From: Chloroflexota bacterium
GTDB lineage: Bacteria > Chloroflexota > Dehalococcoidia > DSTF01 > RBG-16-68-14
Reading direction: 5' to 3'
Length of the DNA stretch: 64,000 nucleotides
NCBI GenBank assembly: GCA_003228685.1
Contig: QIFC01000116.1
Location: forward strand, 9,800-73,799
Under the pieces are notes generated by a model. The model was not told where the DNA came from. It saw only the letters and a program-made list of their open reading frames with translations, and searched no databases. Below are positions 20,158-55,986 of this stretch, in pieces (position 1 is the first letter of the stretch; each line of letters starts with the position of its first letter). The position numbers were made by a program, and so were the translations under genes.

Positions 20158-20310
20158 GCCGCCAATTATAGAGCACGGGCGCGGGAGGTGGAGAATTCCG
20201 GCCTCCCTCGATCCAACGATAGCTCCGTTCGCTAACCCCCGTCTCCCCTCACGGGAGAGAGTCCGGAGGAGAAGACAAACCCGAATGACCGAGATGCTCT
20301 CTTGCAAGGC

Positions 20311-20338
20311 GAGATTCCTCGCTTCGCTCGGAATGACA
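20311..20338. repeat. short imperfect-palindrome repeat, family 2, copy A
   Basis: GAGATTCCTCGCTTCGCTCGGAATGACA. Related to 30283-30342 (GAGAGATTCTTCGCC...GCTCGGCTCAGAATGACAA). Confidence 0.55.
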
Positions 20339-20383
20339 GAGCGGGGGCTCGCCACCGGCCCAGGGCGCTAGGCGACTCTGGGG

Positions 20384-22543
20384 CTACTTGGATTGAGCCA
20401 GGAGCAGATCTGTGCTGTGGCCGTATTTCTTGAGGAAGCGGTAGAAGTTGCGCTTGCTCAGGCGGTCGCGTTCCTCTGCCGGAGTACGTTCCCAGTCCGT
20501 ATGCGCATGCCGGCGCAGCGGCAGGTCCGCAACGAGGCGATTGCGATAGCCTCGCTCGCGCATCGCCAGGCTGTAGTCGAGATCCAGATGGCGATAGAAG
20601 CGAAACTTCTCGTCCATGAGGCCCACTTCACGGACGAGCGAGCGCCGAAGCGCCATGAGATACCCTTCAACGGCGTCGACGTCCGGCCCCGGAGCGTCCT
20701 CGAAGTCGCGCATGTCCTCGCTGTTGACGCCGAACGGGCCGACGATGCCCGTAGTGCCATCCTCCAGCGCGGCCGCGATCTGTTGCAAGAACTCGTCCGT
20801 CGGCTCTACGCTCGTGTCGAGCAGAATGACGATCATCCCCTTGGCCGCGCGCAGGCCGCAGTTGCGCGCCGCGCCGATCCCGATGTTGTGGTCGCACGTA
20901 ATCGCTCGCACGCGGTCGTCTTGCTGCGTCAGTCCGAAGAGCCAATCACCCGTGCCATCAGACGAACCGTTGTCGACGACGATCAGCTCGACGGAATGCC
21001 CATCGGACTGGGCGAGCACGGCCGACGCGGCCCGCCGCAGGCCCTCCAGATCGTCTCGCCCGGTGAGGATCACGCTGAAGTCGAACTCGTCCGGCTCGTC
21101 AAGGAACGAAGGCACGTCATCGGACGAATGCAGGACGCCAATATCGCTGGGCGCGGAGGTCGCTCGTGGCACGACCGCCAGCCCTCCGCGCACGTCGCGG
21201 ACCTCGTAGCCGGCGTCCTCGACGCGCTTCCGCAGCGCGTCCGCCGGCGCAAAGTCCGCGCGCTTGCGCAGCTCTTGCCGCTCATCGATCAATGCCCGCA
21301 CCGCGCCGGGAACTTCGTTCGCCTGCGGCAGGAAATCGAATCCAAGTACTTCGTCGAAGTCACGCAGCAGACGTGTCTTCGTCCGCGGCAACGTGTCCGA
21401 GCGAACGAGCCGCCAGACCGTCGCCAGCGCGCGAGGCAGGTGCAGGTCATCCTGGAGGGCATCCCAGAACGCCTCTTCCCACGCGCTCCCGTCGCTCACG
21501 CCAGTGTCGTCGCCAGTCGCTCCGACCGCCTGGAACGCCTCTTGCCGCAGCTTGCTCAGGCCCGCAGACGCCGCGTGCAACGATTCGAACGTAAAGTTGA
21601 GACGCTTGCGATAGTGGACTGTGGCGCACAGATAACGGAACGCCATCGGCTCGAAGCCACGGCCGAGGAGCTGCGATAACGTATAGACGTTGCCGGTCGA
21701 TTTCGCCATCTTCAGTCCATCGACCAGGAGGTGCTGGCCGTGGACCCACTGTCCGACCACCCGATGACCGAGGGCGCCTTCGCTCTGGGCGATCTCGTCT
21801 TCGTGGTGCGGAAAGATATTGTCGACGCCTCCGGTATGCAGATCGAAGCGCTCGCCGAGGAGGTGTGTCGACATGGCGGAGCACTCGATGTGCCAACCGG
21901 GGAAGCCATCGCCCCACGGGCTGGACCACTTCGCGACCCGTCCCTTCTCGGCTGCCTTCCAGAGCGAAAAGTCTCGGGCATTCTCTTTCAGAGGATCGGT
22001 TTCAGCGCGAACGCCCTCAAGTAGCCCTTCGCCCGTGTTGCCGGACAGCTTGCCGTACTCAAGGAAGCGCTCGACTCGGTAGTAGACGTTCCCGCTCACT
22101 TCGTAAGCCAGTTCTTTTTCGATCAAGCTCTCGATCATCTCGATCATGTGCGCGATGTGGTCCGTCGCTCGCGGAAACTCGTGGGCAGGCTTGATGTTTA
22201 GCGCCTTCTCGTCCCGAAGGAACGACTCCGTGTAGTGCTCGGCGATCTCCGCAGGCGTCTTGCCGGCTTCGATCGCGGCAGCGATCACTTTGTCTTCGCC
22301 TCGCTCCAGCAGCTCCTGCCGCATGTGCCCAACGTCAGTAATATTCTTGACGTGGTGGACCTGGAAGTTCTGCGCTTCTAGGACCCTGCGCAGCCAGTCC
22401 GCGAGCAGATAGGTCCGTAGGTTGCCGATGTGGACATCGCGATAGACGGTCGGCCCGCACGAGTAGATACTCGCCTTGCGTGGCTCAAGGGGCTCGAAGG
22501 GCTGTTTTGTCCGGGTTAGTGTGTCATAGAGCTGAAGCACCAT
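20384..22543 (-). CDS. cysS: cysteine--tRNA ligase fused to a C-terminal GT2 glycosyltransferase domain
   Basis: CGPTVY..VHIGN (HIGH), WHIECS, HHEDEIAQ and KMAKSTGN (KMSKS) are present. CysRS-type C-terminal ADALRKRVEDAGYEVRD. An extra ~230 aa follows: FSVIL...VELIVVDNGSSDGT...HNIGIGAARNCG...ILLDTSV, a GT2 pattern. Confidence 0.8.
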   Translation of the reverse strand: MVLQLYDTLTRTKQPFEPLEPRKASIYSCGPTVYRDVHIGNLRTYLLADWLRRVLEAQNFQVHHVKNITDVGHMRQELLERGEDKVIAAAIEAGKTPAEIAEHYTESFLRDEKALNIKPAHEFPRATDHIAHMIEMIESLIEKELAYEVSGNVYYRVERFLEYGKLSGNTGEGLLEGVRAETDPLKENARDFSLWKAAEKGRVAKWSSPWGDGFPGWHIECSAMSTHLLGERFDLHTGGVDNIFPHHEDEIAQSEGALGHRVVGQWVHGQHLLVDGLKMAKSTGNVYTLSQLLGRGFEPMAFRYLCATVHYRKRLNFTFESLHAASAGLSKLRQEAFQAVGATGDDTGVSDGSAWEEAFWDALQDDLHLPRALATVWRLVRSDTLPRTKTRLLRDFDEVLGFDFLPQANEVPGAVRALIDERQELRKRADFAPADALRKRVEDAGYEVRDVRGGLAVVPRATSAPSDIGVLHSSDDVPSFLDEPDEFDFSVILTGRDDLEGLRRAASAVLAQSDGHSVELIVVDNGSSDGTGDWLFGLTQQDDRVRAITCDHNIGIGAARNCGLRAAKGMIVILLDTSVEPTDEFLQQIAAALEDGTTGIVGPFGVNSEDMRDFEDAPGPDVDAVEGYLMALRRSLVREVGLMDEKFRFYRHLDLDYSLAMRERGYRNRLVADLPLRRHAHTDWERTPAEERDRLSKRNFYRFLKKYGHSTDLLLAQSK

Positions 22544-33230: not shown

Positions 33231-34559
33231 ATGGCCAAACGACACACGCTTCTACCCAACTCACTAGAGACGCTCTTTGTCCGGCTTGAAGAGCTTGTGC
33301 TCGCGAACTCTGGCGAGGATGAGTTCGAGGAAGTCTTTAAGCTGCTCATCGCAAAGCTCTGGGACGAGACACGCGGTGAGAAATCGTTCGGGAGTGGCAG
33401 TACGCCCGAAGAACGACACTCTCAGCTAGACGCTGTCCTCACGGAAGCCGCCGCAGGTTGGCCCGGCATACTCCCAGAATGGAGGACCAGGCTGACGCCG
33501 CAGCATCTCGACACGTGCCTGGAAGTGCTGGCACCCCTGGAAGTTCTGAACACTGGTCTAGAGCCTCTGGACGCCCTGTTCGAATTTCTGATGAACCGCT
33601 CTGCCAAGGGTGCAAAAGGACAGTACTTCACACCTCGTTACGTCGTGGACTTCTGTGTACAGATGCTGGCGCCAAGAAAAGGAGAACGAGTCGTCGATCC
33701 AGCATCAGGGTCTGGCGCGTTTCTCTGGCACAGTCTTAACTGGCTCCTGGAAAACGGTGAGTTGCGAAAGGAAGACGTTCGGTCCTACGCTGAGCAGTGC
33801 TTGTGGGGGTTTGATTTCGATGGACGTGCAGTGAGAATTGCCAAAGCAATGATGCTCATCGCAGGCGACGGCTCAACGAATGTCTTTCGCGTGAACAGCC
33901 TACTCAAGCCAGGGACTACACTCTTTGGTCCGGACACGAGCGGGTTGAACGGCGGTCTGGACGAAGATTCAGTGTTTACAATTGAGGACGTATGCCGAAC
34001 GAAATTGAGGAGTCGCCCGGAATTCGACGTGCTTCTAACCAACCCTCCCTTCGCTGGTGAGATTCGAGAGCGCGAGATCCTGGAGTCGTATCGGCTGTCT
34101 CGCGGGAAAAGACGTGTCGAAAGGGATGTGTTATTCCTGGAGCGCTGCGTGGAGCTTCTCCGTCCCGGAGGCCGGATGGCAATTGTGTTGCCTCACAACA
34201 AGTTTGCTGGCCGCGAATACGGTGACCTTAGATCCTGGACCCGCCGACACCTTCGGATAGCAGCAGTTGTTGGACTCGGGCGAAATACGTTCCTCCCTCA
34301 TACGCATCAGAAGGCCAACATATTGTTCGCCGAGAAGCGAGCCCGCGCTGAAATGCCAGACCAGGGGGAGCGCATCTTCTTCGCTGTTTCAGAGGAGGAT
34401 GGTAAGGATGCTCAAGGCCGCCTTCGCCTAGCAGAGGCCGGCACGGGCGACGACAACCATCGGGAAGGAATCCCATCCTGGAGCTCGGTCGCTCACGATC
34501 TTGGCGACATCGTCCGCGAATTCAACGACTTCCGGGTTAGTGAAGGCATCTTCGAGTAG
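33231..34559 (+). CDS. N6-adenine DNA methyltransferase, HsdM-like (M subunit)
   Basis: GQYFTPR, motif I VVDPASGSGAFL, motif IV LTNPPFAG. Confidence 0.8.
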   Translation: MAKRHTLLPNSLETLFVRLEELVLANSGEDEFEEVFKLLIAKLWDETRGEKSFGSGSTPEERHSQLDAVLTEAAAGWPGILPEWRTRLTPQHLDTCLEVLAPLEVLNTGLEPLDALFEFLMNRSAKGAKGQYFTPRYVVDFCVQMLAPRKGERVVDPASGSGAFLWHSLNWLLENGELRKEDVRSYAEQCLWGFDFDGRAVRIAKAMMLIAGDGSTNVFRVNSLLKPGTTLFGPDTSGLNGGLDEDSVFTIEDVCRTKLRSRPEFDVLLTNPPFAGEIREREILESYRLSRGKRRVERDVLFLERCVELLRPGGRMAIVLPHNKFAGREYGDLRSWTRRHLRIAAVVGLGRNTFLPHTHQKANILFAEKRARAEMPDQGERIFFAVSEEDGKDAQGRLRLAEAGTGDDNHREGIPSWSSVAHDLGDIVREFNDFRVSEGIFE

Positions 34560-34564
34560 ACGAA

Positions 34565-35257
34565 ATGGCTGTTTCAGTGATAGTCGATGCGGCTGGACTC
34601 GCGGCGAACGCAGTACTCGCGCCAGAGCGATACCATCCGCGCAGGACGATGGCCTTGGCTCAACACGCAAGCAAGACTGTGGCTGACGTTGCAGTACTTA
34701 TTCGGGACTCAGTGACAACGGCGACGGCTTCTGAACAAGCTGCCAACTTCAGAATTCTTGACACTTCCCATGTTGTTGAAGGATACGTCCGACCCCGGCG
34801 GGATTGCGTCGGCCCGGAACAGCTAGGGAGTACGAAGCGCGCGATACAGATCGGTGATGTCTTAGTGTCGCGCCTGCGCCCTTATCTCAGGCAGATCGGT
34901 GTAGTGGACAGAGAGTTGATTGGAAGGGACGACTCTGACTGCGCGGTCGTTTGTTCGACGGAGTTCTTCGTCCTTAGATCACCTGACGGGGGCTCGATCG
35001 CCTTCCTGGTTCCCTACTTCTTGACCGCATCGGTCCAGGACGTGTTTGCGGCGGCCGTCGAGGGAGGTCATCATCCCCGCTTCGGCTCGGAGGTGCTACT
35101 TGGCATACCCATCCCTGATGAGCTCCTTGCGAAGAGAGAGCAAATCTCAGCTGACATGGAAGATGCCGTGTACGCCATGCGCCAAGCCGAGCAGGTTATA
35201 GGTGGCGGAATAGCTCGGCTTCAGTCTTGGGTGGCGCGCGAGTCGGGCCCGCAGTAA
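34565..35257 (+). CDS. half-size specificity (HsdS-like, single TRD) subunit
   Basis: 230 aa. IQIGDVLVSRLRPYLRQIGVV matches the S-subunit TRD motif (gD.l..r..p.l.k). Helical C-terminal spacer region. Lies 5 nt after the M gene. Confidence 0.6.
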   Translation: MAVSVIVDAAGLAANAVLAPERYHPRRTMALAQHASKTVADVAVLIRDSVTTATASEQAANFRILDTSHVVEGYVRPRRDCVGPEQLGSTKRAIQIGDVLVSRLRPYLRQIGVVDRELIGRDDSDCAVVCSTEFFVLRSPDGGSIAFLVPYFLTASVQDVFAAAVEGGHHPRFGSEVLLGIPIPDELLAKREQISADMEDAVYAMRQAEQVIGGGIARLQSWVARESGPQ

Positions 35258-36751: not shown

Positions 36752-37501
36752 ATGAACGCTAATGACATTGAGCTGATTGGCATCATGGGTGGCGGGGTGA
36801 TGGGCGGCGGGATCGCGCAGAGCTGCATTGTCGGCGGGTTTCACGTCACCATCCGCGACCTGAACGACGAACTGAACGAGAAGACGCGCGAGACGATGAT
36901 CGAAGGCCGGTTCGGCCTGCGCGGCGCCGTCGAACGGGGGAAGCTCACACAGGAAGGGTTGGATGAGGCGCTCGGGAACCTCTCGTTCACGACGAACGTG
37001 GAGGACCTGCGCGACGCCGACCTGATCATCGAGGCGGTGCCTGAGGGACGCGAACTCAAGAAGAAGGTCTTCGCCGAACTGGACGGCGTGATCAAGCCGG
37101 AAGCGGTCTTCGCTACGAACACCTCCGGGTTCTCGATCTCCGACCTGAACGAAGCCGTCTCGCGCAAGGCGCAGTTCATCGGCATGCACTTCTTCAGTCC
37201 AGCCTTCGTGATGCGGCTGATCGAGATCGTCTACGCGCCGGAGACGAGCGAGGACACGATCAAGCTTCTGGAGGCCGTCGGCGAGAAGATGAAGAAAGAG
37301 ACCGTCCGCGTCAAGGACGCCCCGAACGCCTACGGCTTCGTCGCGAACCGCATCTACTTCGCGGCTGTCGCAGAAGCTCGCAAGGTGATGGACGAAGAGA
37401 TCGCTTCGGTAGACGACATCAACAAAGCGATGCGCTTTGGCTTCAACTGGCCGGCCGGGCCCCTGGAGATGATCACCGGCGCCCGAAAGGGGTGGCAGTA
37501 A
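36752..37501 (+). CDS. 3-hydroxyacyl-CoA dehydrogenase family protein, short C-terminus
   Basis: Start re-picked at ATG 36752 (GGAGG upstream). IGIMGGGVMGGGIA Rossmann motif, FATNTSGFSI, HFFSPA. Ends at ..GPLEMITGARKGWQ, roughly 40 aa earlier than typical family members. Confidence 0.75.
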   Translation: MNANDIELIGIMGGGVMGGGIAQSCIVGGFHVTIRDLNDELNEKTRETMIEGRFGLRGAVERGKLTQEGLDEALGNLSFTTNVEDLRDADLIIEAVPEGRELKKKVFAELDGVIKPEAVFATNTSGFSISDLNEAVSRKAQFIGMHFFSPAFVMRLIEIVYAPETSEDTIKLLEAVGEKMKKETVRVKDAPNAYGFVANRIYFAAVAEARKVMDEEIASVDDINKAMRFGFNWPAGPLEMITGARKGWQ

Positions 37502-37539
37502 GAGATTCGCAGGAGCTGCTGAAGCTGATAACGGTTGTG

Positions 37540-37557
37540 AGCGAAAGTACTTTCGCT
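37540..37557 (+). terminator. terminator-like hairpin after the dehydrogenase gene
   Basis: AGCGAAAG-TA-CTTTCGCT palindrome, followed by TATGTTGT. Confidence 0.45.
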
Positions 37558-37573
37558 TATGTTGTCTAGCCGA

Positions 37574-37602
37574 TTGACAACTCGATCTACCAGGCGTATT
37601 CT
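37574..37602 (+). promoter_or_regulatory. sigma-70-type promoter for the riboswitch leader
   Basis: TTGACA, 17 nt, TATTCT. The same hexamer pair and spacing occur at 45115-45143. Confidence 0.55.
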
Positions 37603-37624
37603 AGATCCTGCAAACAGCTTCAGA

Positions 37625-37780
37625 CCCTGCTTGCCTAATCCTGTGCGAGCACTGCTCGCGTCGGGAACGGGGGACCCAAGTAAACTGGGGTGAATCTCTA
37701 AGCGGTCGAAGACCGCCGAGGGAGGGCCAGTTCCTTCAGGCCTAACCCGGCAGCTAACCTCGTAGGCATCTGGAGGAGGT
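37625..37780 (+). promoter_or_regulatory. ydaO/yuaA-class (c-di-AMP) riboswitch
   Basis: Ordered conserved blocks UAAUC, GAGC..GCUC, ACGGGGGACCCA, GGGGUGAAUC, GCCGAGGGAGG, AACCCGGCAGCUAACCUCGUAGGC. The closing helix is TGCCTA (37632-37637) with TAGGCA (37763-37768). Confidence 0.8.
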
Positions 37781-37913
37781 GACACGTAGCGCGTACGGGC
37801 CGCATCGCCGGCGGTGTACGATTCTCGCCTGCGGCTGGCGACCGCCAATACAGAACAACACGTCAACCGGCAACACAAGAACAACGCCTTGTCGTCCACA
37901 AGGAGGTGCACGC

Positions 37914-38372
37914 GTGGCAAAGCTAGAGACCGAGGTACACGTCAGAAGGTCCCGCACGAAGTTCAAGGGACTGCTGATCACCGCCGACCCATCGCTGGCG
38001 CGCGCGTTCCGGCGAGAGCTGACCAACTGCGCAGATTGCTCGATCTCGTTTGAACTTCAGGCGAATTTCGACGAAGCGTGCCGGGCGGGTGGCGGGCCTT
38101 ACTTGTGTGTCACGATCGATTTGGACGGAGCTGTCGCGCCGAAAGAAGCCGTGCGACTAGCCCGCAGCGCGTGGCCGCTCGCACGAATCGCCGTGCTCAG
38201 CTTCTGGTGGAGCGAGCAGGCAGACGCCGCGATGGATCAGGCCGACGTCATCATTCACAAACCGCTCCGGGCTGCCGAACTACGCGCGTTCCTGAGATCA
38301 CCCACCGGAGCGCCCAAGATCGAACACGTGTCCACAGTCGAAGAGCAGCACGTCGTCGCCGCAAGCCGGTAG
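37914..38372 (+). CDS. stand-alone response-regulator receiver (REC) domain protein
   Basis: Start re-picked at GTG 37914 (AAGGAGG 7 nt upstream). By-eye CheY alignment: LLITAD (D13), CVTIDLDG (D57), AVLSF (T/S87), IIHKP (K109). Confidence 0.6.
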   Translation: MAKLETEVHVRRSRTKFKGLLITADPSLARAFRRELTNCADCSISFELQANFDEACRAGGGPYLCVTIDLDGAVAPKEAVRLARSAWPLARIAVLSFWWSEQADAAMDQADVIIHKPLRAAELRAFLRSPTGAPKIEHVSTVEEQHVVAASR

Positions 38373-38381
38373 CATCGACGC

Positions 38382-39062
38382 TTAGGCGACGGGGCGGATA
38401 CCGTTCTTCAAACTGTCGCGTTCGTGCCAGCCTTCCTTCGCCGCGATCAGCGGCACGAAGCGGCATTCGCCCAGCTTCTCCAACGCAACACCGGCCGGCG
38501 ACTTCGTCACACGAACGAGTTGCTGCATCTTCCGGTCCCCTACCGGCACGACCAGCCTGCCACCTTGCCCTAGCTGGCCGATGAGCGACCGCGGGACGTT
38601 CGGCGCACCGGCCGTGACGATAATCGCGTCGAACGGCGCCTCCTCTGCCAACCCCAACTCCTCGCCCGCCTGAAGCACTCGCACGTTCGCGCAGCCTAGC
38701 TCGTCGAGCCGGTGTGCCGCCGCCCGCGCAAGGTCTGGCAACCTCTCTACGCTGACAACCTCACGCGCCAGCTTCGACAGGATGGCGGCCTGGTAGCCCG
38801 AACCGGTGCCGACCTCGAGCACTTTTTCATCGCCCGTGAGCTTGAGTGCCTGAGTCATGATCGCGACCATGAGCGGCTGTGAGATCGTCTGGTCGCGCGC
38901 GATCGGCAGAGCCCTGTCCTCGTATGCATGGCGGCGCAACTGCTCTGGGATGAAGTGTTCGCGCGGGACGCCGCCGATCGCGGCGAGCACGCGAGCATCC
39001 GTAATCTCACCACGCAGCGAGCGCACGAGCGCCTCGCGGGCCAGTTGGAAATCAATGGTCAT
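38382..39062 (-). CDS. pcm: protein-L-isoaspartate O-methyltransferase
   Basis: TISQP.MVA.M, VLEVGTGSGYQAA.L, GGRLV.PVG. Confidence 0.85.
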   Translation of the reverse strand: MTIDFQLAREALVRSLRGEITDARVLAAIGGVPREHFIPEQLRRHAYEDRALPIARDQTISQPLMVAIMTQALKLTGDEKVLEVGTGSGYQAAILSKLAREVVSVERLPDLARAAAHRLDELGCANVRVLQAGEELGLAEEAPFDAIIVTAGAPNVPRSLIGQLGQGGRLVVPVGDRKMQQLVRVTKSPAGVALEKLGECRFVPLIAAKEGWHERDSLKNGIRPVA

Positions 39063-39074
39063 AGGAGCGCTTCG

Positions 39075-39416
39075 CTAGGACGTTGAAGCTCTGGCCAACT
39101 CCGGATCGATCGCCGTGAAGGAACGTTCGACGTGCGAACCTTGTTCGATACGCTGCATGATCTCGGCCCGGACGGTCAGCACATGCTGCGTGTTCGCAGC
39201 CTGATCCGCTTCCTCTTCGGAGTTCCAAACTGTGATCCGCCCAACGCGGCCTCGTGGATCGCCCTCCAACAGCGCATACCCGCGGACGTAGCCAGGCTTG
39301 CCGATAAAGAACGTGAGCAGATTGTCCATCAGTCCCGCCACAAGCTCTTCCGAGCCCTGCTTGGCATTCATGAGCGAGATCCTGACGTAAAAGGTAGCTT
39401 CTGCAGGGTGATCCAT
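39075..39416 (-). CDS. ABM-domain (antibiotic biosynthesis monooxygenase-like) protein
   Basis: Start re-picked at ATG 39416 (GGAGGG upstream). 113-aa ferredoxin-like pattern with ITVWNSEEEA. Confidence 0.5.
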   Translation of the reverse strand: MDHPAEATFYVRISLMNAKQGSEELVAGLMDNLLTFFIGKPGYVRGYALLEGDPRGRVGRITVWNSEEEADQAANTQHVLTVRAEIMQRIEQGSHVERSFTAIDPELARASTS

Positions 39417-39490
39417 GGCGCCCTCCTTTGTACCCGTTAATGGTATCACGGCAGCGGGCCGCTGGGCAGCGGGCCGCTCGGTAGCGGGGC

Positions 39491-40519
39491 CTAGATAGCG
39501 GCAGCTAGCTTCCAGAAGAGGCGCTGAAGCTGAGTAGCCAGATCCGTGGGCAGCCGCGCGACGGAATCCTCCCGCGCCAGATCGGCCAGATCGCCTTGGG
39601 GATCCTGCACTCGCGTCACCAACTGCCAGGCGCCCAGCGCATGGAGCGCCTTCCAATAAGCCAAGCGATGATCATCAATTGGGTGCAGGCGGCGATACGA
39701 CCGCAAATACTGCCACTGTAGGTAGCCACGCGCGGCGCGCAGCGCGATGCGCTCCAGCGCATTTTCCGCGATGATCGGCGCGATCCAGAAGACGAGTAGC
39801 GAACGCGCGACGTCAAAGTGCCGGTCGCCCAGCGCGGCGTCCGACCAGTCCAAGACGTTCGCCGCGCCTGACTCGTCGGCCAGGATGTTGAGCGGATGAA
39901 AGTCGCCGTGGCAGAGCACCACTTCTTCCATCGCCACAGTGGCCTTGTTTTGCTCCAGCCACTCCAGCGCCCGCGCCTGATCCGCGTCGCCGGTGTGATC
40001 GCCGCGCAGCTCAACAAGCTTGCGCTCCACCAGCGGCGCGCCGCGTTCCAACGGGCAGTCTGCCGTCGGCAAGGCGTGCAGGGCCACCTGCAGGTCGGCC
40101 ATCTGCCGTAGCAAGCGGCCAACCGCGAGCGGGCTTGCCGTCACGATGTCGAGCATCGGCTTGCCGTCCACGCGCGGCATCACCATGATGGGCAGACCGA
40201 ACTCGGCCGCCTGGCGGTCGAACAGCAGCGGCTCGACCGCGGGATAACCCTGCGACGCGGCGAACGATTGCACGTCCGCCTCCTTCTGAGCCTTCTCCGC
40301 CTGATCCTCGGACGTGTAGAGGCGCAGCACGAGCGGCGCGCTCCATTGGGGACCCAGCCCATCCGCGTTTAGGTGGAATGAGTAGATGCGTGTATCCATC
40401 CCGCGGCCCAATGGCGTCGGAGGTTCCAAGTATATGATGCCGGAGACATGGAGCTTATCCGCTACGTACTGGCGCAGGGCATCCGCTACTTCGGCTGGGT
40501 TTGCGGGATTGACCGCCAT
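39491..40519 (-). CDS. aminoglycoside/choline-kinase-type phosphotransferase (APH family)
   Basis: Start re-picked at ATG 40519. Catalytic loop LCHGDFHPLNIL and VLDWSDAALGDRHFD. Confidence 0.7.
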   Translation of the reverse strand: MAVNPANPAEVADALRQYVADKLHVSGIIYLEPPTPLGRGMDTRIYSFHLNADGLGPQWSAPLVLRLYTSEDQAEKAQKEADVQSFAASQGYPAVEPLLFDRQAAEFGLPIMVMPRVDGKPMLDIVTASPLAVGRLLRQMADLQVALHALPTADCPLERGAPLVERKLVELRGDHTGDADQARALEWLEQNKATVAMEEVVLCHGDFHPLNILADESGAANVLDWSDAALGDRHFDVARSLLVFWIAPIIAENALERIALRAARGYLQWQYLRSYRRLHPIDDHRLAYWKALHALGAWQLVTRVQDPQGDLADLAREDSVARLPTDLATQLQRLFWKLAAAI

Positions 40520-45164: not shown

Positions 45165-46454
45165 TTGGTTACCAAATTGCAATCACCAAAGTGCATCGAC
45201 CTATTTTGCGGAGCTGGAGGTCTCTCTGAAGGATTCCGCCAGGCCGGTTTCGAAACGCTCTTTGCTAACGACATCGACGCGAACGCGCTAGAAACCTTCG
45301 CGCTCAACCACCCGAAGACGCCGCTCATCTATCACGGGGCAGTGGAACAGATACAGCCTCGAAAGATAACTCGATCGCTAGGATTGAGAAAAGGGGAGCT
45401 AGATGTTCTCGTCGGCGGGCCACCATGCCAAGGTTTCTCGATCAATGCCCCTGACAGGGCACTGGATGATCCGAGAAACCACCTTTTTCGCTACTACATT
45501 CAGTTTGTAGATGCGTTGCGACCGAAGGCGATCGTGATGGAGAACGTGCCAGGGCTGGTCTCCATGGGAAACTGGGCGTTCTTACAGACGATCTCTGGGG
45601 CTCTCACCAAACTTGGCTATGAAGTTGAGGCGAAGATCCTCTACGCCGCGCACTACGGCGTGCCTCAAGAGCGTTGGCGCCTTGTGATCATGGGGAGCCG
45701 AGTAGGTTCAGTTCAGTTTCCAAGCCCAACGCACTTCGCCCCTGGGCGCCCGAACTTCGCAGGTGGACGGACCATGACCTTCCGACATGCGCTCCGCAGC
45801 GACTCCAACGGCTCGGAACTCCTGCCGTTTACAACGGTCGCGGAGGCCATCAGTGACCTTCCTCGACTGGAGCCCGGCCAGGGCAGCGAGAACGAGCCAT
45901 ATCTCAGCAGCCGAAAACCGCCCTCTACTTATGCCCGCGAACTTCGGAGAGGCTCCAAAGTCGTTTCAAATCACGTCGCTCCTAAGATCGCCAAGGTGAA
46001 CCGTGAGCGGGTCAAGTTCGTTCCGCCTGGAGGCAGCTGGCGGGACATACCTCATGAACTTCTACCGAAGGGAATGCAACGTGCTAGGCGCAGCGACCAC
46101 ACAAAGCGTTACGGGAGGCTCGCTGCAGACGGGCTATCAGGAACGATCATGACAAAGTGTGACCCTCACTGGGGAGCGGTATTCTTGCCAGATCAGGACC
46201 GAACGCTTTCTGTACGAGAGGCAGCCCGCCTCCAATCGTTTCCAGATCATTACGTCTTCCGTGGTCCACGCGTTTCTCAGTACACACAGGTAGGCAACGC
46301 CGTACCGCCGTTGCTGGCGAAGGCGATAGGCCTCCAGGTTCTCTCCTTGCTGAGGTCATCGAACCAGGGCAGCCGTCGGTTCAGGTCGATCAGAGACCGC
46401 AGAACAGCCGCAAGAAAGCCAGTGGAGCGAAAGACGCAGAAGGCGAAGGCCTAG
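45165..46454 (+). CDS. DNA (cytosine-5)-methyltransferase
   Basis: Motif I DLFCGAGG, motif IV GGPPCQGFS, ENVPGL, and C-terminal QSFPD...QVGNAVPP. TTG start with GAGGG 5 nt upstream. Confidence 0.9.
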   Translation: MVTKLQSPKCIDLFCGAGGLSEGFRQAGFETLFANDIDANALETFALNHPKTPLIYHGAVEQIQPRKITRSLGLRKGELDVLVGGPPCQGFSINAPDRALDDPRNHLFRYYIQFVDALRPKAIVMENVPGLVSMGNWAFLQTISGALTKLGYEVEAKILYAAHYGVPQERWRLVIMGSRVGSVQFPSPTHFAPGRPNFAGGRTMTFRHALRSDSNGSELLPFTTVAEAISDLPRLEPGQGSENEPYLSSRKPPSTYARELRRGSKVVSNHVAPKIAKVNRERVKFVPPGGSWRDIPHELLPKGMQRARRSDHTKRYGRLAADGLSGTIMTKCDPHWGAVFLPDQDRTLSVREAARLQSFPDHYVFRGPRVSQYTQVGNAVPPLLAKAIGLQVLSLLRSSNQGSRRFRSIRDRRTAARKPVERKTQKAKA

Positions 46455-46461
46455 AGCGCGC

Positions 46462-47280
46462 ATGGCCGTCCTCCGAATCGCAGAGATATTTGGGCACGGA
46501 GTGGAGAATCTCTCAACCAGTGCGAGACTCGATAGGGAGGAAAGACACTGCCCCATTCGGGACAGCAACTGCACAAAGTCCAACGCTGCCAATCCTCTCG
46601 GAGTGTGTAGCTTGTCAGATGGAACAAATGCCACTTCAATCTGCCCAGTACGCTTCCAAGAAGGCAATCGGCTATTCGTGGACGCTGCACGGCTTGCGTT
46701 CGGGGCCGGCAAGCGGTTCACGCCGGTTCCTGAGGTGAAGATCCTTCGAACGAAGGATGGCAAGAAGATCGGGAAAATCGACTTCATCCTGGCGCAACTT
46801 GATGCCGATGATAGGCCAGTGGACTTCGCGGCTCTTGAGGTGCAGGCAGTATATTTCTCTGGACGTTCGATTAGACCTGCAATGGAATACTACCTTACCC
46901 ATGATGAACTGGACGTGGCAATAAGCGAACGGCGCCCGGATTATCGATCATCTGCCCAGAAGCGGCTAATGCCGCAGCTCAGTTTGAAGATTCCCGTGTT
47001 TCGGCGTTGGGGCAAGAAGTTCTTTGTGGCTGTGGATTCCCTCTTCTATGCTGCGCTGCCGGAGTTCCAGAGTGTGGGTCAGGCAAACGCTGAATTGACG
47101 TGGCTCTCCTATCCCCTGGCGAAGACTGGCCCTGACTACCACTTGGAGGACCCAGAGATCATCCACTGCCTTTGGGACGACATTTTGAATGCGCTTCGCG
47201 AAGGTGCAGCCCCGGAGCCAGATGAGATAGTAGAGGAACTAGGGCGCAGGATGGATCGCGAACGAATATTCTCGACTTAG
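46462..47280 (+). CDS. NotI-family-like Type II restriction endonuclease
   Basis: AEIFGHGV N-terminus and a Cys4 cluster C-x6-C-x11-C-x11-CPVRF resemble the NotI N-terminal metal site (from memory). Sits between a C5-MTase and vsr. Confidence 0.55.
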   Translation: MAVLRIAEIFGHGVENLSTSARLDREERHCPIRDSNCTKSNAANPLGVCSLSDGTNATSICPVRFQEGNRLFVDAARLAFGAGKRFTPVPEVKILRTKDGKKIGKIDFILAQLDADDRPVDFAALEVQAVYFSGRSIRPAMEYYLTHDELDVAISERRPDYRSSAQKRLMPQLSLKIPVFRRWGKKFFVAVDSLFYAALPEFQSVGQANAELTWLSYPLAKTGPDYHLEDPEIIHCLWDDILNALREGAAPEPDEIVEELGRRMDRERIFST

Positions 47281-53654: not shown

Positions 53655-55001
53655 CTACTCTTCTCGCACCGCGAACAGCCGTTGCGGCTCCGCGATGCCC
53701 TTCAGCTCGTGCTCGCCTCGGTCATCGAACGTGACGCCCGCCGACGTGCGCGCTAGCCCACGCACGATGTCTGACACAAGAATCTCCCCCGGCTCGGCGA
53801 CGCCCTGCACTCGCGCCGCGACCTGCACCGTGCCACCGTGGACGCTATTCCCCTCGCGCACCACGTCGCCGGCATGGATGCCGAGATGGAGCGGCAAGCC
53901 CGCCTCGTTGCCGAGGTCGCGGCAGCGTTGCGCCACCTCGATCGCCTGCCTTGCCGATGTGAACACCGCCATCACGCCGTCGCCCAACACCTTGCCCTCG
54001 ACCGGCGTCCCACCGGCGGCCGTGATGGCGGCCCGCAGCCTGCCGTCCAGATCTCTCTCCTTCTCGCGGTAGGCGGCGTCGCCCAGCTTGGTCGTCAGTT
54101 CTGTCGAGCCTGCGATGTCGAGGAAGAGGATGACGGCGGTGCCGGTGGGGAGGCTACGCGGCTCAGGGCCTGCTTCCATCATTGGGACCTCGCGTCCTTC
54201 ATCTAAAAACTGCCCGATGCGTTTCGCTGTTTCTCCGTGGTCGGCTAAGGGACCGGAACCTCCGATAACGACGAAGCGGGCATCCGGGATCTGGGTGGCA
54301 ACTTCCCGGCTGGCAGAGATGATCGCAGCGCCAAAGCCATGCGGGCGGAAGACGAGAGTTGGCGCTTGGACATGAGGGAGGAAGGACCTGATATCGTATC
54401 CGGACATGAACCCGACATACTCGGCAGCAATGGCTGGTGATACGGCGTCGCGGAGGGCGGCTGCCTGCGCGTGCCTGAGTTCGGCGGGCGCCTGAGCATA
54501 GACGATGTCGGTCATCATTCTCCGTGCCAACGACCAATTCGTGTTGATAAGCTCGAGCAAGCTGTGGACGACTTTCGGGCTCCACCCATTTTCACCACGG
54601 GGATACACCGCGTTTAGGACGAGCCGAGCCAACCGTCCAGGGTATTGGGCGGCATAGGCAACACAGATCGCAGCGCCATCAACCCATCCCGCGAGGTCGA
54701 ACTGCTGCAGGCTGAGCTGATCAACGACGGCTGCCAGATCGGAGACTTGAGCGTCCAACGACAGATCATGAACGTCGCGCGCTGAAGCGCCCACCCCGCG
54801 CCGGTCGATACTGATCACTCGCCGGCCCTGAGCAAGGCCCTCGACATGAGACTGAAAGTTGTCTTCTTCCGAGCTGAGCCCATGAGTGACAAGCCACGAA
54901 TTGACTTGCACAAGCGGCATCGTCTGGGCGTCACCATGGACTGCGTAGGCGATGCGCGTGCCATCGGTGCTGGTACAGAAGCGAATCTGCGACTCCATCA
55001 C
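53655..55001 (-). CDS. alpha/beta-hydrolase-fold domain fused to a class III nucleotidyl cyclase domain
   Basis: N-terminal ABH fold with GWVDG at the nucleophile-elbow position. C-terminal FLDIAGST...KVLGDGVMAVF...GIHAGDV...VQVAARV cyclase pattern. Confidence 0.75.
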   Translation of the reverse strand: MMESQIRFCTSTDGTRIAYAVHGDAQTMPLVQVNSWLVTHGLSSEEDNFQSHVEGLAQGRRVISIDRRGVGASARDVHDLSLDAQVSDLAAVVDQLSLQQFDLAGWVDGAAICVAYAAQYPGRLARLVLNAVYPRGENGWSPKVVHSLLELINTNWSLARRMMTDIVYAQAPAELRHAQAAALRDAVSPAIAAEYVGFMSGYDIRSFLPHVQAPTLVFRPHGFGAAIISASREVATQIPDARFVVIGGSGPLADHGETAKRIGQFLDEGREVPMMEAGPEPRSLPTGTAVILFLDIAGSTELTTKLGDAAYREKERDLDGRLRAAITAAGGTPVEGKVLGDGVMAVFTSARQAIEVAQRCRDLGNEAGLPLHLGIHAGDVVREGNSVHGGTVQVAARVQGVAEPGEILVSDIVRGLARTSAGVTFDDRGEHELKGIAEPQRLFAVREE

Positions 55002-55011
55002 TCCTGCTCCC

Positions 55012-55986
55012 TTAGGCTCCCGATGTCCCGAGTAGCGACTTCAAGAAGTCGTTACGTTTTGCCTCGGCGGCCAGGCCGATAGGAGTCGGAAACGCGTCAA
55101 AGCCATGGGGAGCGCCTGGGTAGGCTGCAAGCTCCGCGTCGATTCCAGCGCTGATCCAGCGGTCATACATGAAGAGCGAGTCATCAAGTAGCGGATCACG
55201 GGTGCCGATCGTGAACAGGGCCGGCGGCATGTTGGTCAGATCCGCGTACATCGGCGAGATGTCCGGATCGTGCAGATTTCCGCCCCTTGCGTAGTGACGC
55301 ACGAACCACTCCATCATTGGCGTGTTAAGCACAAGCGGTTCATCGCCGAAGTTCCTGGCACTCGGCGTGAGTGTGAGATCAAACGGGCCGTACGAGAGGT
55401 AAGCTCCCGTGAACCCGGTGTATCCGTGCTTGTCTCTCATTCGCAGCATCGTGACCACGGACAGACTGGCGCCTGACGACTCGCCGCCAATCAACAGCGC
55501 ATCGCTCCCGTACTCCTCCTTGGCATGCTTCACCAACCAGGCCGCAGCGGCTTCGCAATCATCCGGTCCCGCCGGATACGGGTCTTCTGGCGCCTGGCGG
55601 AATTCCACCGACACAACGGCGAGATTGCAGCTATCGGCGATCGATGCGAGCGTACCATCCTGTGCGTTCGCGCTCCCGAAGACCCAGCCACCTCCGTGGA
55701 TGTGACACAGCACCCCCAAGGGGTTGTCAGGTACGATCTGGCGCAGAGTCAGGCTTCCTCCCGGGCCTGGGATGGTGCGTTCAGTTGCGCGATCAGATTT
55801 CGGAGGTTGGGGGGCGGAAGCATCTTCCTTAACACTCTTCCGTAGTGCGGCCACTGCGGCTGGCGTCAGTTCATAAATTCGTGGGCTCTTGGTACCGGCC
55901 CCCACGATGTCCGCGTTCATCTTGGTGGTTTCCGGCGTGATCGCCGCAAACAGTTCCTTGCTAAGATTGCTGGTCATCTTCCTCAC
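55012..55986 (-). CDS. alpha/beta hydrolase, HSL-type esterase/lipase
   Basis: HGGGW oxyanion motif and GESSGA (GxSxG). The start overlaps the upstream gene by ~26 nt, so the start is uncertain. Confidence 0.75.
   Translation of the reverse strand: MRKMTSNLSKELFAAITPETTKMNADIVGAGTKSPRIYELTPAAVAALRKSVKEDASAPQPPKSDRATERTIPGPGGSLTLRQIVPDNPLGVLCHIHGGGWVFGSANAQDGTLASIADSCNLAVVSVEFRQAPEDPYPAGPDDCEAAAAWLVKHAKEEYGSDALLIGGESSGASLSVVTMLRMRDKHGYTGFTGAYLSYGPFDLTLTPSARNFGDEPLVLNTPMMEWFVRHYARGGNLHDPDISPMYADLTNMPPALFTIGTRDPLLDDSLFMYDRWISAGIDAELAAYPGAPHGFDAFPTPIGLAAEAKRNDFLKSLLGTSGA

Follow-up and report, generated by a model that had tools for sequence, protein, structure and literature searches.

Is cyclic di-AMP (c-di-AMP) coupled to two-component signalling through an RNA switch, and what would the product of the switched gene do? 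The question arises from an initial annotation of a 64-kb stretch of DNA (64,000 nucleotides, hereafter the window) from an uncultured, GC-rich Chloroflexota lineage (63% GC), of which one related MAG is labelled Dehalococcoidia. The annotation proposed that a ydaO-class riboswitch lies in the leader of a gene for a stand-alone CheY-like receiver and controls it. We examined the RNA element, the boundaries of its transcription unit, the identity of the encoded protein, and the persistence of the arrangement in related genomes.

The RNA element was readily identified. Infernal with the Rfam models placed a c-di-AMP riboswitch aptamer (RF00379) at positions 37622-37783 of the + strand, with a score of 79.7 bits (E = 6.9e-17) against a gathering score of 38 bits, and the match spans the whole model (1-134 of 134) and is not truncated. 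RF00379 was the only Rfam family at threshold in the 64-kb window, and no other RNA family gave a better match. Given this score, this E-value and the lack of any other family at threshold, the match is far beyond chance, and the ydaO-class identity that had been recognized from the order of a few sequence blocks is borne out by a full-length match with its conserved blocks intact. The core blocks AAUCC, ACGGGGGACCCA, GGGGUGAAUC and AACCCG-CAGCUAACCUCG are all present in the alignment to the consensus, and none of them varies among the orthologous leaders. The blocks listed in the initial annotation were likewise all found in place, including TGCCTA (37632-37637) and TAGGCA (37763-37768), within which 37632-37635 pairs with 37765-37768 to form the closing helix P1. 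Comparison of 14 orthologous leaders shows covariation in the variable stems of the aptamer, and in eight pairs both sides have changed.

In this riboswitch class, as known from published crystal structures, a hairpin loop forms a pseudoknot with the 3' tail. Its counterpart here would join the hairpin loop UUCCUUCAG (37731-37739, + strand), whose core UCCUUC is invariant, to the tail CUGGAGGAG (37770-37778, + strand), which is nearly invariant in all leaders and with which the aptamer properly ends on its 3' side. The two strands are complementary at nine positions, one of which is a compensatory column (C-G in eight leaders, U-G in two, and U-A in L004 and L015); comparative support for the pseudoknot is limited, since nearly all of the remaining columns are invariant. 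Judged by its sequence, the leader RNA at 37622-37783 is a genuine RF00379-class c-di-AMP riboswitch, and it presumably binds c-di-AMP.

The transcription unit to which the aptamer belongs is short and well delimited. On its 5' side, the gene for 3-hydroxyacyl-CoA dehydrogenase upstream closes with a terminator-like hairpin followed by a U-rich run (37538-37559, + strand; -14.4 kcal/mol, z = -3.3, equalled by 2 of 200 shuffles); the sequence of this hairpin is kept in L022/L023, and the unit that contains the riboswitch is bounded by it on the 5' side. Next comes the sigma-70-type promoter of the initial annotation, confirmed at 37574-37602 (+ strand) as TTGACA (37574-37579), a 17-nt spacer and TATTCT (37597-37602), with 10 of 12 matches to consensus; it is the sole promoter-like site within the 2.5 kb from 37000 to 39500. 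In the leaders that we checked by eye, the promoter has the same TTGACA hexamer (TTCACG in L013), a TAnnnT-like hexamer and the 17-nt spacing, and it also persists in loci that have no aptamer.

The gene itself runs from a GTG start at 37914 to 38372 on the + strand and encodes 152 amino acids, as the initial annotation had it; its assignment as a receiver-fold gene draws on the ORF, the family alignment, a structure model, Foldseek and remote homology. The start is backed by the length of the homologues (about 150 amino acids) and by a Shine-Dalgarno region, AAGGAGGUG at 37900-37908 (+ strand), that recurs as CAAGGAGGTG-N6-start in nearly all loci. Specifically, CAAGGAGGTG-N6-ATG/GTG was found in 20 of the 22 loci examined, the exceptions being L015, with the variant CATGGAGGTA and a longer spacer, and L017, whose start was called at a point downstream of the Shine-Dalgarno sequence. 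We rejected a longer ORF of 197 amino acids from a GTG at 37779; the extension is absent or not conserved elsewhere, and the conserved Shine-Dalgarno sequence indicates 37914. Downstream, the convergent pcm gene for protein-L-isoaspartate O-methyltransferase (38382-39062, - strand; PF01135, 3.5e-59) marks the 3' boundary of the unit, which is therefore monocistronic. Between the upstream terminator-like hairpin and the convergent pcm, 37914-38372 is thus the only possible target of the riboswitch in cis.

The protein family is narrow, comprising about 56 clusters of which only 11 representative clusters fall below 1e-10, and was seen only in uncultured Chloroflexota. A survey of its members for the same leader, suggested in the initial annotation, found the RF00379 aptamer ahead of the gene in 17 of the 25 loci with usable upstream DNA, behind which the proteins are only 47-85% identical. 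Outside the window, the aptamer reaches the gathering score in L001, L002, L004, L007, L008, L009, L010, L013, L015, L016, L017, L018, L019, L021, L025 and L027. Seven members of the window's own clade (the window, L001, L002, L021, L008, L009 and L027) retain it at 67-83 bits. In about four related lineages the aptamer has decayed or been deleted: its core is replaced in L022/L023 (whose protein is 78% identical to that of the window), a clean internal deletion has removed it in L020, about half of it is left in L005, L011 and L026 (25.8 bits in L005), and it is absent from L003 and L024. Promoter and Shine-Dalgarno sequence are still there in all of these loci (L003, L005, L011, L020, L022/L023, L024 and L026), so that regulation by the riboswitch is dispensable.

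The convergent pcm gene follows in 20 of the 20 loci that reach far enough downstream, and this adjacency is the most conserved synteny of the family, kept even where the upstream genes differ. No kinase was found among the neighbours of the gene in the loci examined. Within the window, neither a histidine kinase nor a diadenylate cyclase nor a K+/osmolyte gene turned up in the ORFs examined; a search of the window for the RHR motif of diadenylate cyclases found none, and a Pfam scan of its large ORFs returned no kinase or transporter.

How the aptamer would act on the gene is best read from the relatives. In eight related leaders the aptamer tail is followed at once by a GC-rich hairpin (-20 to -31 kcal/mol) and a U-rich tract. 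Those of L007, L025, L016, L017, L018 and L019 are textbook terminators, 5-7 of the next 9 nt being U (in L017, z = -3.1 and 0 of 200 shuffles are as good), and L013 and L015 have weaker versions. In the terminator-bearing leaders the 3' strand of the aptamer can pair with the 5' arm of the terminator, an antiterminator geometry, and this arm is the best partner of the 3' strand in L004, L015 and L018. Because MAFFT set the two types of post-aptamer hairpin out of register, we compared them by per-sequence energies instead of by column-wise covariation. Ensemble folding of full-length leaders versus downstream sequence only gave a mixed and uninformative antiterminator signal.

At the corresponding site, the window has an eroded hairpin (37792-37820, + strand; -12.0 kcal/mol, z = 0.2 and +0.7) followed by AUUCUCGCC, with three U in the next 9 nt. 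This hairpin does not surpass shuffled sequence in stability, and no canonical intrinsic terminator was found after the window's aptamer. We therefore do not place the window in the canonical-terminator class, and infer an OFF switch by homology to the related leaders; that the riboswitch controls the gene, as the initial annotation put it, is likewise a reading taken from the relatives, because the window's own expression platform is degenerate. Intrinsic termination in the window may have little strength, or some other mode may have taken its place. Sequestration of the ribosome-binding site was considered and rejected as a general mechanism: in L016 the element CCACCUCCUCCAG is complementary to the aptamer tail as well as to the Shine-Dalgarno sequence, and no such element is conserved across loci. 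A hairpin at 37886-37918 in the window that would sequester the Shine-Dalgarno sequence is not significant (z = -0.4).

The 152-residue protein carries D25, D69, S96 and K116-P117 and has no output domain. Searches with receiver profiles, by which the initial annotation had proposed to judge the ORF, formally went against it, returning no match to Pfam PF00072 (only PF24896, Receiver_CRE1, with E = 0.17 and 12.5 bits versus a cutoff of 27) and none to NCBIfam. Of the PDB sequences searched with the family profile, the best response regulator had only E = 1.4, and in hhalign with one CheY sequence the alignment was confined to the Lys-Pro region. The receiver assignment therefore rests on fold and remote homology. 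An AlphaFold model shows five strand-helix units, (beta-alpha)5, with pLDDT of 80-90 in the core, and each of the best 50 matches listed by Foldseek against the PDB was a receiver or receiver-like domain (best E 6.7e-6; TM up to about 0.76-0.77, normalized to the target), among them the phosphorylation-independent CpaE, FrzS and HP1043. In a deep profile search of the family, 16 of 47 distant matches were PF00072 proteins, and full-length alignments to these set D69, S96 and K116-P117 on the catalytic Asp, Ser/Thr and Lys-Pro positions.

The CheY-like description thus stands as to fold, remote PF00072 homology and the missing output domain, and falls as to recognizable membership of the Pfam or NCBIfam families; the modelled protein is a divergent receiver-fold remote homologue and not a PF00072 member. 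The three conserved features that the initial annotation had named are retained at aligned positions. D69 ends the strand 65-69 (beta3), is invariant in the family and also aligns with the acceptor Asp of 2qxy; S96, which closes beta4, is shared by most members and replaced by Ala or Cys in a few; and K116-P117, at the end of beta5, is invariant. Of the N-terminal acidic pair after beta1, which in receivers binds Mg2+, only the second residue is retained; the sequence reads A24-D25, the first position being A, G, T or S in the family and the second a nearly invariant Asp. Further invariant residues are specific to the lineage: W87-P88 before beta4, W98-W99 after it, H115, R119 and E122. The ORF is under strong purifying selection.

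Taken together, we consider it probable that this is a c-di-AMP riboswitch in the leader of a monocistronic gene for a divergent orphan receiver, acting as an OFF switch by attenuation. Transcription would start a few bases past the TTGACA-17-TATTCT promoter, and the nascent aptamer (37622-37783), with P1 and the loop-tail pseudoknot formed, would bind c-di-AMP. With ligand bound, the 3' strand and the tail would be locked within the aptamer, and the hairpin at 37792-37820 with its pyrimidine tract would then stop or attenuate transcription before the Shine-Dalgarno sequence at 37900. High c-di-AMP would thereby mean less receiver-like protein, and low c-di-AMP would allow read-through and translation from the strong Shine-Dalgarno sequence. 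The abundance of the protein would in this way be set by c-di-AMP. Both the OFF polarity and the termination mode are ascribed to the window by analogy with its relatives. The product would most likely be a stand-alone module of the CheY/Spo0F type that serves as a phosphorylatable adaptor or a phosphate sink; its phosphorylation and its partners are predictions.

Control in the window's clade might instead bypass an intrinsic terminator altogether, with the real aptamer acting through an element GCCUGCGG at 37827-37834 (+ strand) that would pair with the aptamer 3' strand UCGUAGGC (37760-37767) in the ligand-free state as an anti-P1 helix, and with output through Rho-dependent termination on a stretch rich in C and A and poor in G (37846-37900), through the stability of the mRNA or through initiation of translation, in either polarity. 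The insignificant hairpin and eroded U-tract of the window would fit this, as would the composition of 37846-37900 (19 C and 8 G, the genome being 63% GC). In 10 of 15 loci the aptamer 3' strand has its best partner at one common offset, 82% of the cells in this analyst-chosen register are paired versus 27-49% in slid registers, and L008 and L009 differ here (GGCAA/UUGCC versus GGCAU/AUGCC). However, we treat the alternative helix as a candidate only, because its covariation lacks significance (the observed value is reached by 147 of 500 shuffles). The C-rich, G-poor stretch occurs only in the window, L001 and L022 and not family-wide, the hairpin overlapping the Shine-Dalgarno sequence is not significant, and no conserved anti-Shine-Dalgarno element was found; we regard this route as rather unlikely. 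We think it improbable that the riboswitch of the window is a relic, perhaps still folding and binding, with the gene simply expressed from its conserved promoter. The independent aptamer losses described above (L022/L023, L020, L005/L011/L026 and L003/L024), with promoter and Shine-Dalgarno sequence retained, and the eroded terminator of the window's clade are what a relic would predict, but the window's aptamer is intact in every conserved block, and its retention by seven clade members, with compensatory changes in the variable stems, argues for continuing purifying selection on the RNA. Least probable of all, in our judgement, is that the relevant output is antisense read-through into pcm, by which c-di-AMP would modulate that gene through transcriptional interference. 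The stop codons of the two genes, at 38372 and 38382, are separated by only 9 nt, we found no + strand terminator there, and no other synteny of the family is as stable as the adjacency of the two genes; yet this adjacency persists in the aptamer-less L003, L005, L020, L022 and L026 and is therefore independent of the riboswitch, and purifying selection acts strongly on the protein-coding ORF itself.

These alternatives concern the output of the riboswitch; a further one concerns the protein. It might be a pseudo-receiver, with the receiver fold but no phosphorylation, for example a constitutive protein-protein adaptor, in which case no phosphorelay would be under c-di-AMP control. We hold this possibility to be less likely than not. 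It is consistent with the failure of PF00072 to match, Ala at the first acidic position, the replacement of Ser96 by Ala or Cys in some members, the lack of a kinase among the neighbours in the loci examined, the phosphorylation-independent domains among the Foldseek matches and the invariant lineage-specific residues. On the other side, D69 and K116-P117 are invariant, D25 nearly so, and they align with the catalytic positions of bona fide receivers, as expected if phosphoryl chemistry is retained. We accordingly offer only tentatively the fuller proposal that c-di-AMP is wired into His-Asp phosphotransfer, with the riboswitch setting the level of an orphan phosphorylatable receiver that is a sink or adaptor of a two-component pathway. 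If true, the pathway served might be one that answers to osmotic stress or K+, or one that controls c-di-AMP turnover, to name examples, and the locus would represent a link from second messenger to phosphorelay at the RNA level of a kind not known to have been described for c-di-AMP.

Whichever function the protein has, the riboswitch is of a known class and its target gene is unreported, an unusual one for a well-known RNA sensor. In PMC3766115, PMC7266159 and PMC10117811, the documented c-di-AMP riboswitch regulon covers transporters, osmoprotection and cell-wall remodelling. Published regulons are made up mainly of transporters of K+, amino acids and osmolytes, along with cell-wall hydrolases. 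We found no published pairing of a c-di-AMP riboswitch with a receiver gene in the accessible literature, the primary papers with full gene lists lying outside this search, and within that scope the initial annotation's view of the link as undescribed holds. Paired in a conserved way with a signalling-type protein, the riboswitch would bring in a further regulatory layer, a second messenger setting the dose of a receiver module, and would give a handle for function discovery in an unannotated protein family. The close relatives that keep promoter, Shine-Dalgarno sequence and gene with aptamer or terminator deleted or eroded form a natural experiment on the loss of riboswitch control. Knowledge of the RF00379 class itself is unchanged by the finding.

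The aptamer belongs to the same family as the Bacillus ydaO/kimA, ktrAB and kdp riboswitches. Characterized RF00379 members are OFF switches, and in the Bacillus thuringiensis kdp leader, where aptamer and terminator are followed by about 143 bp to the start codon, c-di-AMP promotes intrinsic termination (PMC6488665). The window shares with that leader the order of aptamer, terminator-type hairpin and some 90-140 nt before the start codon. It differs from the Bacillus riboswitches in its target, an orphan receiver-fold protein instead of a K+/osmolyte transporter or cell-wall enzyme, in its eroded terminator and in its GC-rich, uncultured Chloroflexota host. A GC-rich host with the same aptamer class is also found in Streptomyces, at rpfA, and in actinobacteria with other riboswitch-controlled genes for cell-wall hydrolases, and c-di-AMP binding to the ydaO-like rpfA riboswitch is reported to lead to premature transcription termination (PMC10117811); muralytic enzymes are regulated there, and a signalling-type protein here.

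Among single-domain regulators, CheY, Spo0F and DivK share with the predicted protein the (beta-alpha)5 fold, the lack of an output domain, and Asp, Ser and Lys-Pro at the ends of beta3, beta4 and beta5. Unlike these PF00072 proteins, it has A-D in place of D-D after beta1, its own signature residues (WP, WW, H115, R119 and E122) and a very narrow distribution. Riboswitches of the c-di-GMP-I and -II classes occur upstream of motility, chemotaxis and signalling genes. The placement of a cyclic-dinucleotide riboswitch before a signal-transduction or behaviour gene has also been reviewed (PMC7288161). Our locus resembles these in having a cyclic-dinucleotide sensor directly before a signalling gene, with a different ligand and aptamer. 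A riboswitch is also linked to a response regulator of the two-component type through the AdoCbl-riboswitch sRNAs EutX and Rli55, which sequester the response regulator EutV in trans. There the regulator is titrated by the RNA, whereas here synthesis of the receiver-like protein would be controlled in cis.

A search of the entire window with the Rfam 15 models, using gathering thresholds, returned a single match, to the c-di-AMP (ydaO/yuaA) riboswitch family RF00379, at 37622-37783 on the forward strand (79.7 bits against a gathering score of 38, E = 6.9e-17, model positions 1-134 of 134). This confirms, far beyond chance, the ydaO-class riboswitch proposed in the initial annotation, whose sequence blocks between 37574 and 38372 are all in place, and no other RNA family offers a better match. 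The region is very probably the c-di-AMP riboswitch leader of the 152-aa receiver-like gene at 37914-38372 (forward strand), the first ORF downstream. In the 14 full-length aptamer copies compared, eight pairs in the variable stems have changed on both sides, indicating selection on RNA structure. The tail CUGGAGGAG (37770-37778) is almost invariant across leaders and has a complementary partner in the loop UUCCUUCAG (37731-37739), where the core UCCUUC never varies; in one column the pair changes from C-G to U-A in two related loci, L004 and L015. Crystal structures of the RF00379 class contain a loop-tail pseudoknot, which this predicted pairing fits. Pairing of the tail in the pseudoknot would explain the conservation of a purine-rich sequence resembling a Shine-Dalgarno (SD) element 130 nt before the genuine SD.

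The claimed promoter (TTGACA-17-TATTCT, 37574-37602, forward strand) was found as well, and is the only promoter-like site in 37000-39500. On the upstream side, a gene for a 3-hydroxyacyl-CoA dehydrogenase stops at 37501, and beyond it come a significant hairpin (37538-37559, z = -3.3 relative to shuffled sequence) and a U-rich run. This hairpin, conserved in sequence in L022 and L023 and absent from the output of a consensus terminator scan, is probably the terminator of the dehydrogenase gene. Downstream, the next gene is the convergent protein-L-isoaspartate O-methyltransferase gene pcm (PF01135, 3.5e-59). Given the upstream terminator-like hairpin and convergent pcm, the riboswitch can act in cis solely on the 152-aa ORF. 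The two stop codons (38372 and 38382) lie 9 nt apart and no terminator was found between them, so the transcripts of the two genes must overlap. The GTG start at 37914 is preceded by AAGGAGGUG. Among 22 loci examined, 20 share the arrangement CAAGGAGGTG-N6-ATG/GTG; L015 has a variant, CATGGAGGTA, with a longer spacer, and in L017 the start was called downstream of the SD. An in-frame extension from GTG 37779 was rejected, as it does not recur in other loci.

The initial annotation had described the product as a stand-alone CheY-like receiver, which formally fails on profile searches: there is no match to PF00072 in Pfam and none in NCBIfam, and the sole Pfam match is sub-threshold (PF24896, Receiver_CRE1, E = 0.17). 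A predicted receiver fold and the alignment of the Asp, Ser and Lys-Pro positions are nevertheless supported by deeper tests. A search of 5.8 billion proteins yielded a family of 56 clusters of ~150-aa proteins (47-99% identity), all without Pfam domains, and the organism labels seen were Chloroflexota or Dehalococcoidia MAGs. In the family alignment, D69, W87-P88, W98-W99, H115, K116-P117, R119 and E122 are invariant and D25 almost so. An AlphaFold2 model built from this alignment has five strand-helix units (17-22/26-38, 44-49/52-57, 65-69/76-86, 91-97/101-107 and 112-116/120-128), with core pLDDT of 80-90 and both termini disordered. The best 50 Foldseek matches listed from the PDB are all receiver or receiver-like domains, including 3lte, CosR, BqsR, KdpE, Spo0F, PhoP, MtrA, CpaE, FrzS and HP1043 (among these, best E-value 6.7e-6; TM 0.76-0.77 normalised to target). 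A filter-free HMMER search of 1.84 billion representatives with the family profile gave only 11 clusters below 1e-10, followed by a tail of weak matches, so the family is narrow. PF00072 proteins make up 16 of the 47 weak profile matches scanned (best PF00072 E-value 1e-29), and the alignment spans their full length. In it the DD pair is matched by A24-D25, the phospho-acceptor Asp by D69, the beta4 Ser/Thr by S96 and the beta5 Lys-Pro by K116-P117, in agreement with an alignment to 2qxy. Of the five residues of a canonical active site, the protein retains four. Judged from model and alignment, the product is a predicted stand-alone, strongly divergent receiver-fold protein with putative phosphorylation.

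We retrieved 27 related loci encoding homologues from GTDB genomes, metagenomes and assemblies. The proposed survey of orthologues for the same leader bore out the pairing: RF00379 scores at or above the gathering score upstream of the gene and on its strand in the window and in 16 further loci (L001, L002, L004, L007, L008, L009, L010, L013, L015, L016, L017, L018, L019, L021, L025 and L027). The aptamers of L010 and L025 are cut by contig ends and score 42.7 and 60.5 bits; the other copies score 67-97 bits. L006, L012 and L014 come without upstream DNA. An intact aptamer is missing from eight loci, in about four lineages, representing independent losses. L022 (560-800) and L023 (1-250), whose protein is 78% identical to that of the window, keep the promoter, first bases of the closing helix P1 and SD around a replaced aptamer core; L020 (1-250) has a clean internal deletion (GCCUAA|GGCCGAACCCG); L005 (2720-2819, 25.8 bits), L011 (480-750) and L026 (1280-1500) retain about half of the aptamer; and L003 (2850-2980) and L024 (870-995) have a short leader lacking it. 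The TTGACA promoter, SD and gene are retained in every such lineage, forming a natural series of intermediates in riboswitch loss. Together with the stem changes, this distribution indicates that the pairing is ancestral to the gene family, kept in most members and repeatedly lost.

Gene neighborhoods are also shared. In most loci the upstream side holds genes for an M20 peptidase and a 3-hydroxyacyl-CoA dehydrogenase. On the downstream side, every one of the 20 loci that extend far enough has a convergent pcm, after which come ABM-like, APH and beta-lactamase-family genes. The receiver-like/pcm adjacency is the family's most conserved synteny, persisting where upstream genes differ. The window ORFs examined and the neighbors include no histidine kinase, no diadenylate cyclase and no K+/osmolyte transporter. 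Elsewhere in the window, the catalytic domain of a class I cysteinyl-tRNA synthetase is joined to a glycosyltransferase domain of family 2 in a 719-aa protein (20384-22543, reverse), a fusion also called in syntenic contig L027. Two adjacent signalling proteins (55961-58186 and 53655-55001, reverse) combine alpha/beta hydrolase, Ser/Thr protein kinase and class III nucleotidyl cyclase domains (741 aa) and alpha/beta hydrolase and cyclase domains (448 aa). An 880-aa protein (1750-4392, reverse) has a C-terminal type I dockerin domain, unusual in Chloroflexota, as its only Pfam match. Restriction-modification genes occur at 33231-35257 and 45165-47280 (forward) and 17329-20355 (reverse). The N6 methylase (33231-34559) and C5 cytosine methylase (45165-46454) genes, each with its neighbor, are likely recent insertions, since their GC3 is 0.60-0.62 (most genes, 0.7-0.9) and they are missing at the corresponding place in L027; the MmeI-like enzyme (17329-20355) has a normal GC3 of 0.76.

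Every leader has a hairpin 3' of the aptamer tail. In L007, L025, L016, L017, L018 and L019 it reads GCGCGGGACGAGGG-loop-CCCUCGCCCUGCG (-20 to -28 kcal/mol) with 5-7 U in the following 9 nt, the predicted form of a textbook intrinsic terminator; in L017, z = -3.1 and 0 of 200 shuffles fold as well. In L013 and L015 this stem precedes a weaker U-rich tract. Where a leader carries the terminator sequence, the terminator 5' arm (GUGC...ACGAGG) is a possible pairing partner of the aptamer 3' strand CCUCGUAGGCAU, and the best one in L004, L015 and L018; the predicted pairing has classical antiterminator geometry. The window clade (window, L001, L002, L021, L008 and L009) has a hairpin of other sequence at the same place and an eroded U-tract; that of the window (37792-37820) reaches -12.0 kcal/mol with z = 0.2 (+0.7 for a larger segment) and is followed by AUUCUCGCC.

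Other modes of control were considered. Right after the hairpin, the window clade carries GCCU(A/G)CG(A/G) (37827-37834 in the window), complementary to UCGUAGGC, the 3' strand of the aptamer. In 10 of 15 loci the best partner of this strand lies at that same offset, and 82% of cells are paired against 27-49% in slid registers, the register being hand-chosen; covariation is not significant, and we regard the alternative helix as a hypothesis. Between these elements and the SD, 37846-37900 is C/A-rich and G-poor (C19, G8 of 55 nt) in a 63% GC genome and resembles a Rho-utilisation site by composition; such a stretch occurs only in the window, L001 and L022. As for translational control, no conserved anti-SD was found across the leaders, and an SD-overlapping hairpin in the window is not significant. 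In L016 alone, CCCACCUCCUCCAGCC (740-755), complementary to both the aptamer tail and the SD, would allow a tail/anti-SD/SD switch; L013 has a weaker counterpart, CUCCAG, and the element is not conserved across the family.

Characterised c-di-AMP riboswitches are OFF switches (PMC6488665, PMC10117811), and with the canonical terminators of the relatives this makes repression by transcription attenuation the best-supported reading. On this reading the receiver-like protein would be made at low c-di-AMP. We consider the explanation as a whole probable; its part in which the leader works as an OFF switch through termination is somewhat less secure, though still favored. Because the window's terminator is degenerate, we infer the strength and mode of control there. 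A less likely reading is that c-di-AMP controls how much there is of an orphan receiver that can be phosphorylated, and so feeds into a His-Asp pathway.

In the kdp leader of Bacillus thuringiensis, the intrinsic terminator sits 143 bp before the start codon and is promoted when c-di-AMP binds (PMC6488665), and in Streptomyces rpfA ligand binding leads to premature termination (PMC10117811); the related leaders share this layout and a canonical terminator. A full-text literature search found no report of a receiver or response-regulator target of a c-di-AMP riboswitch, primary complete gene lists lying outside its coverage and an earlier mention being possible. The RNA belongs to a well-known class and its target gene is unusual: PMC3766115, PMC7266159 and PMC10117811 describe a regulon of transporters for K+, amino acids and osmolytes together with enzymes that remodel the cell wall, whereas the target here is predicted to have a receiver fold.
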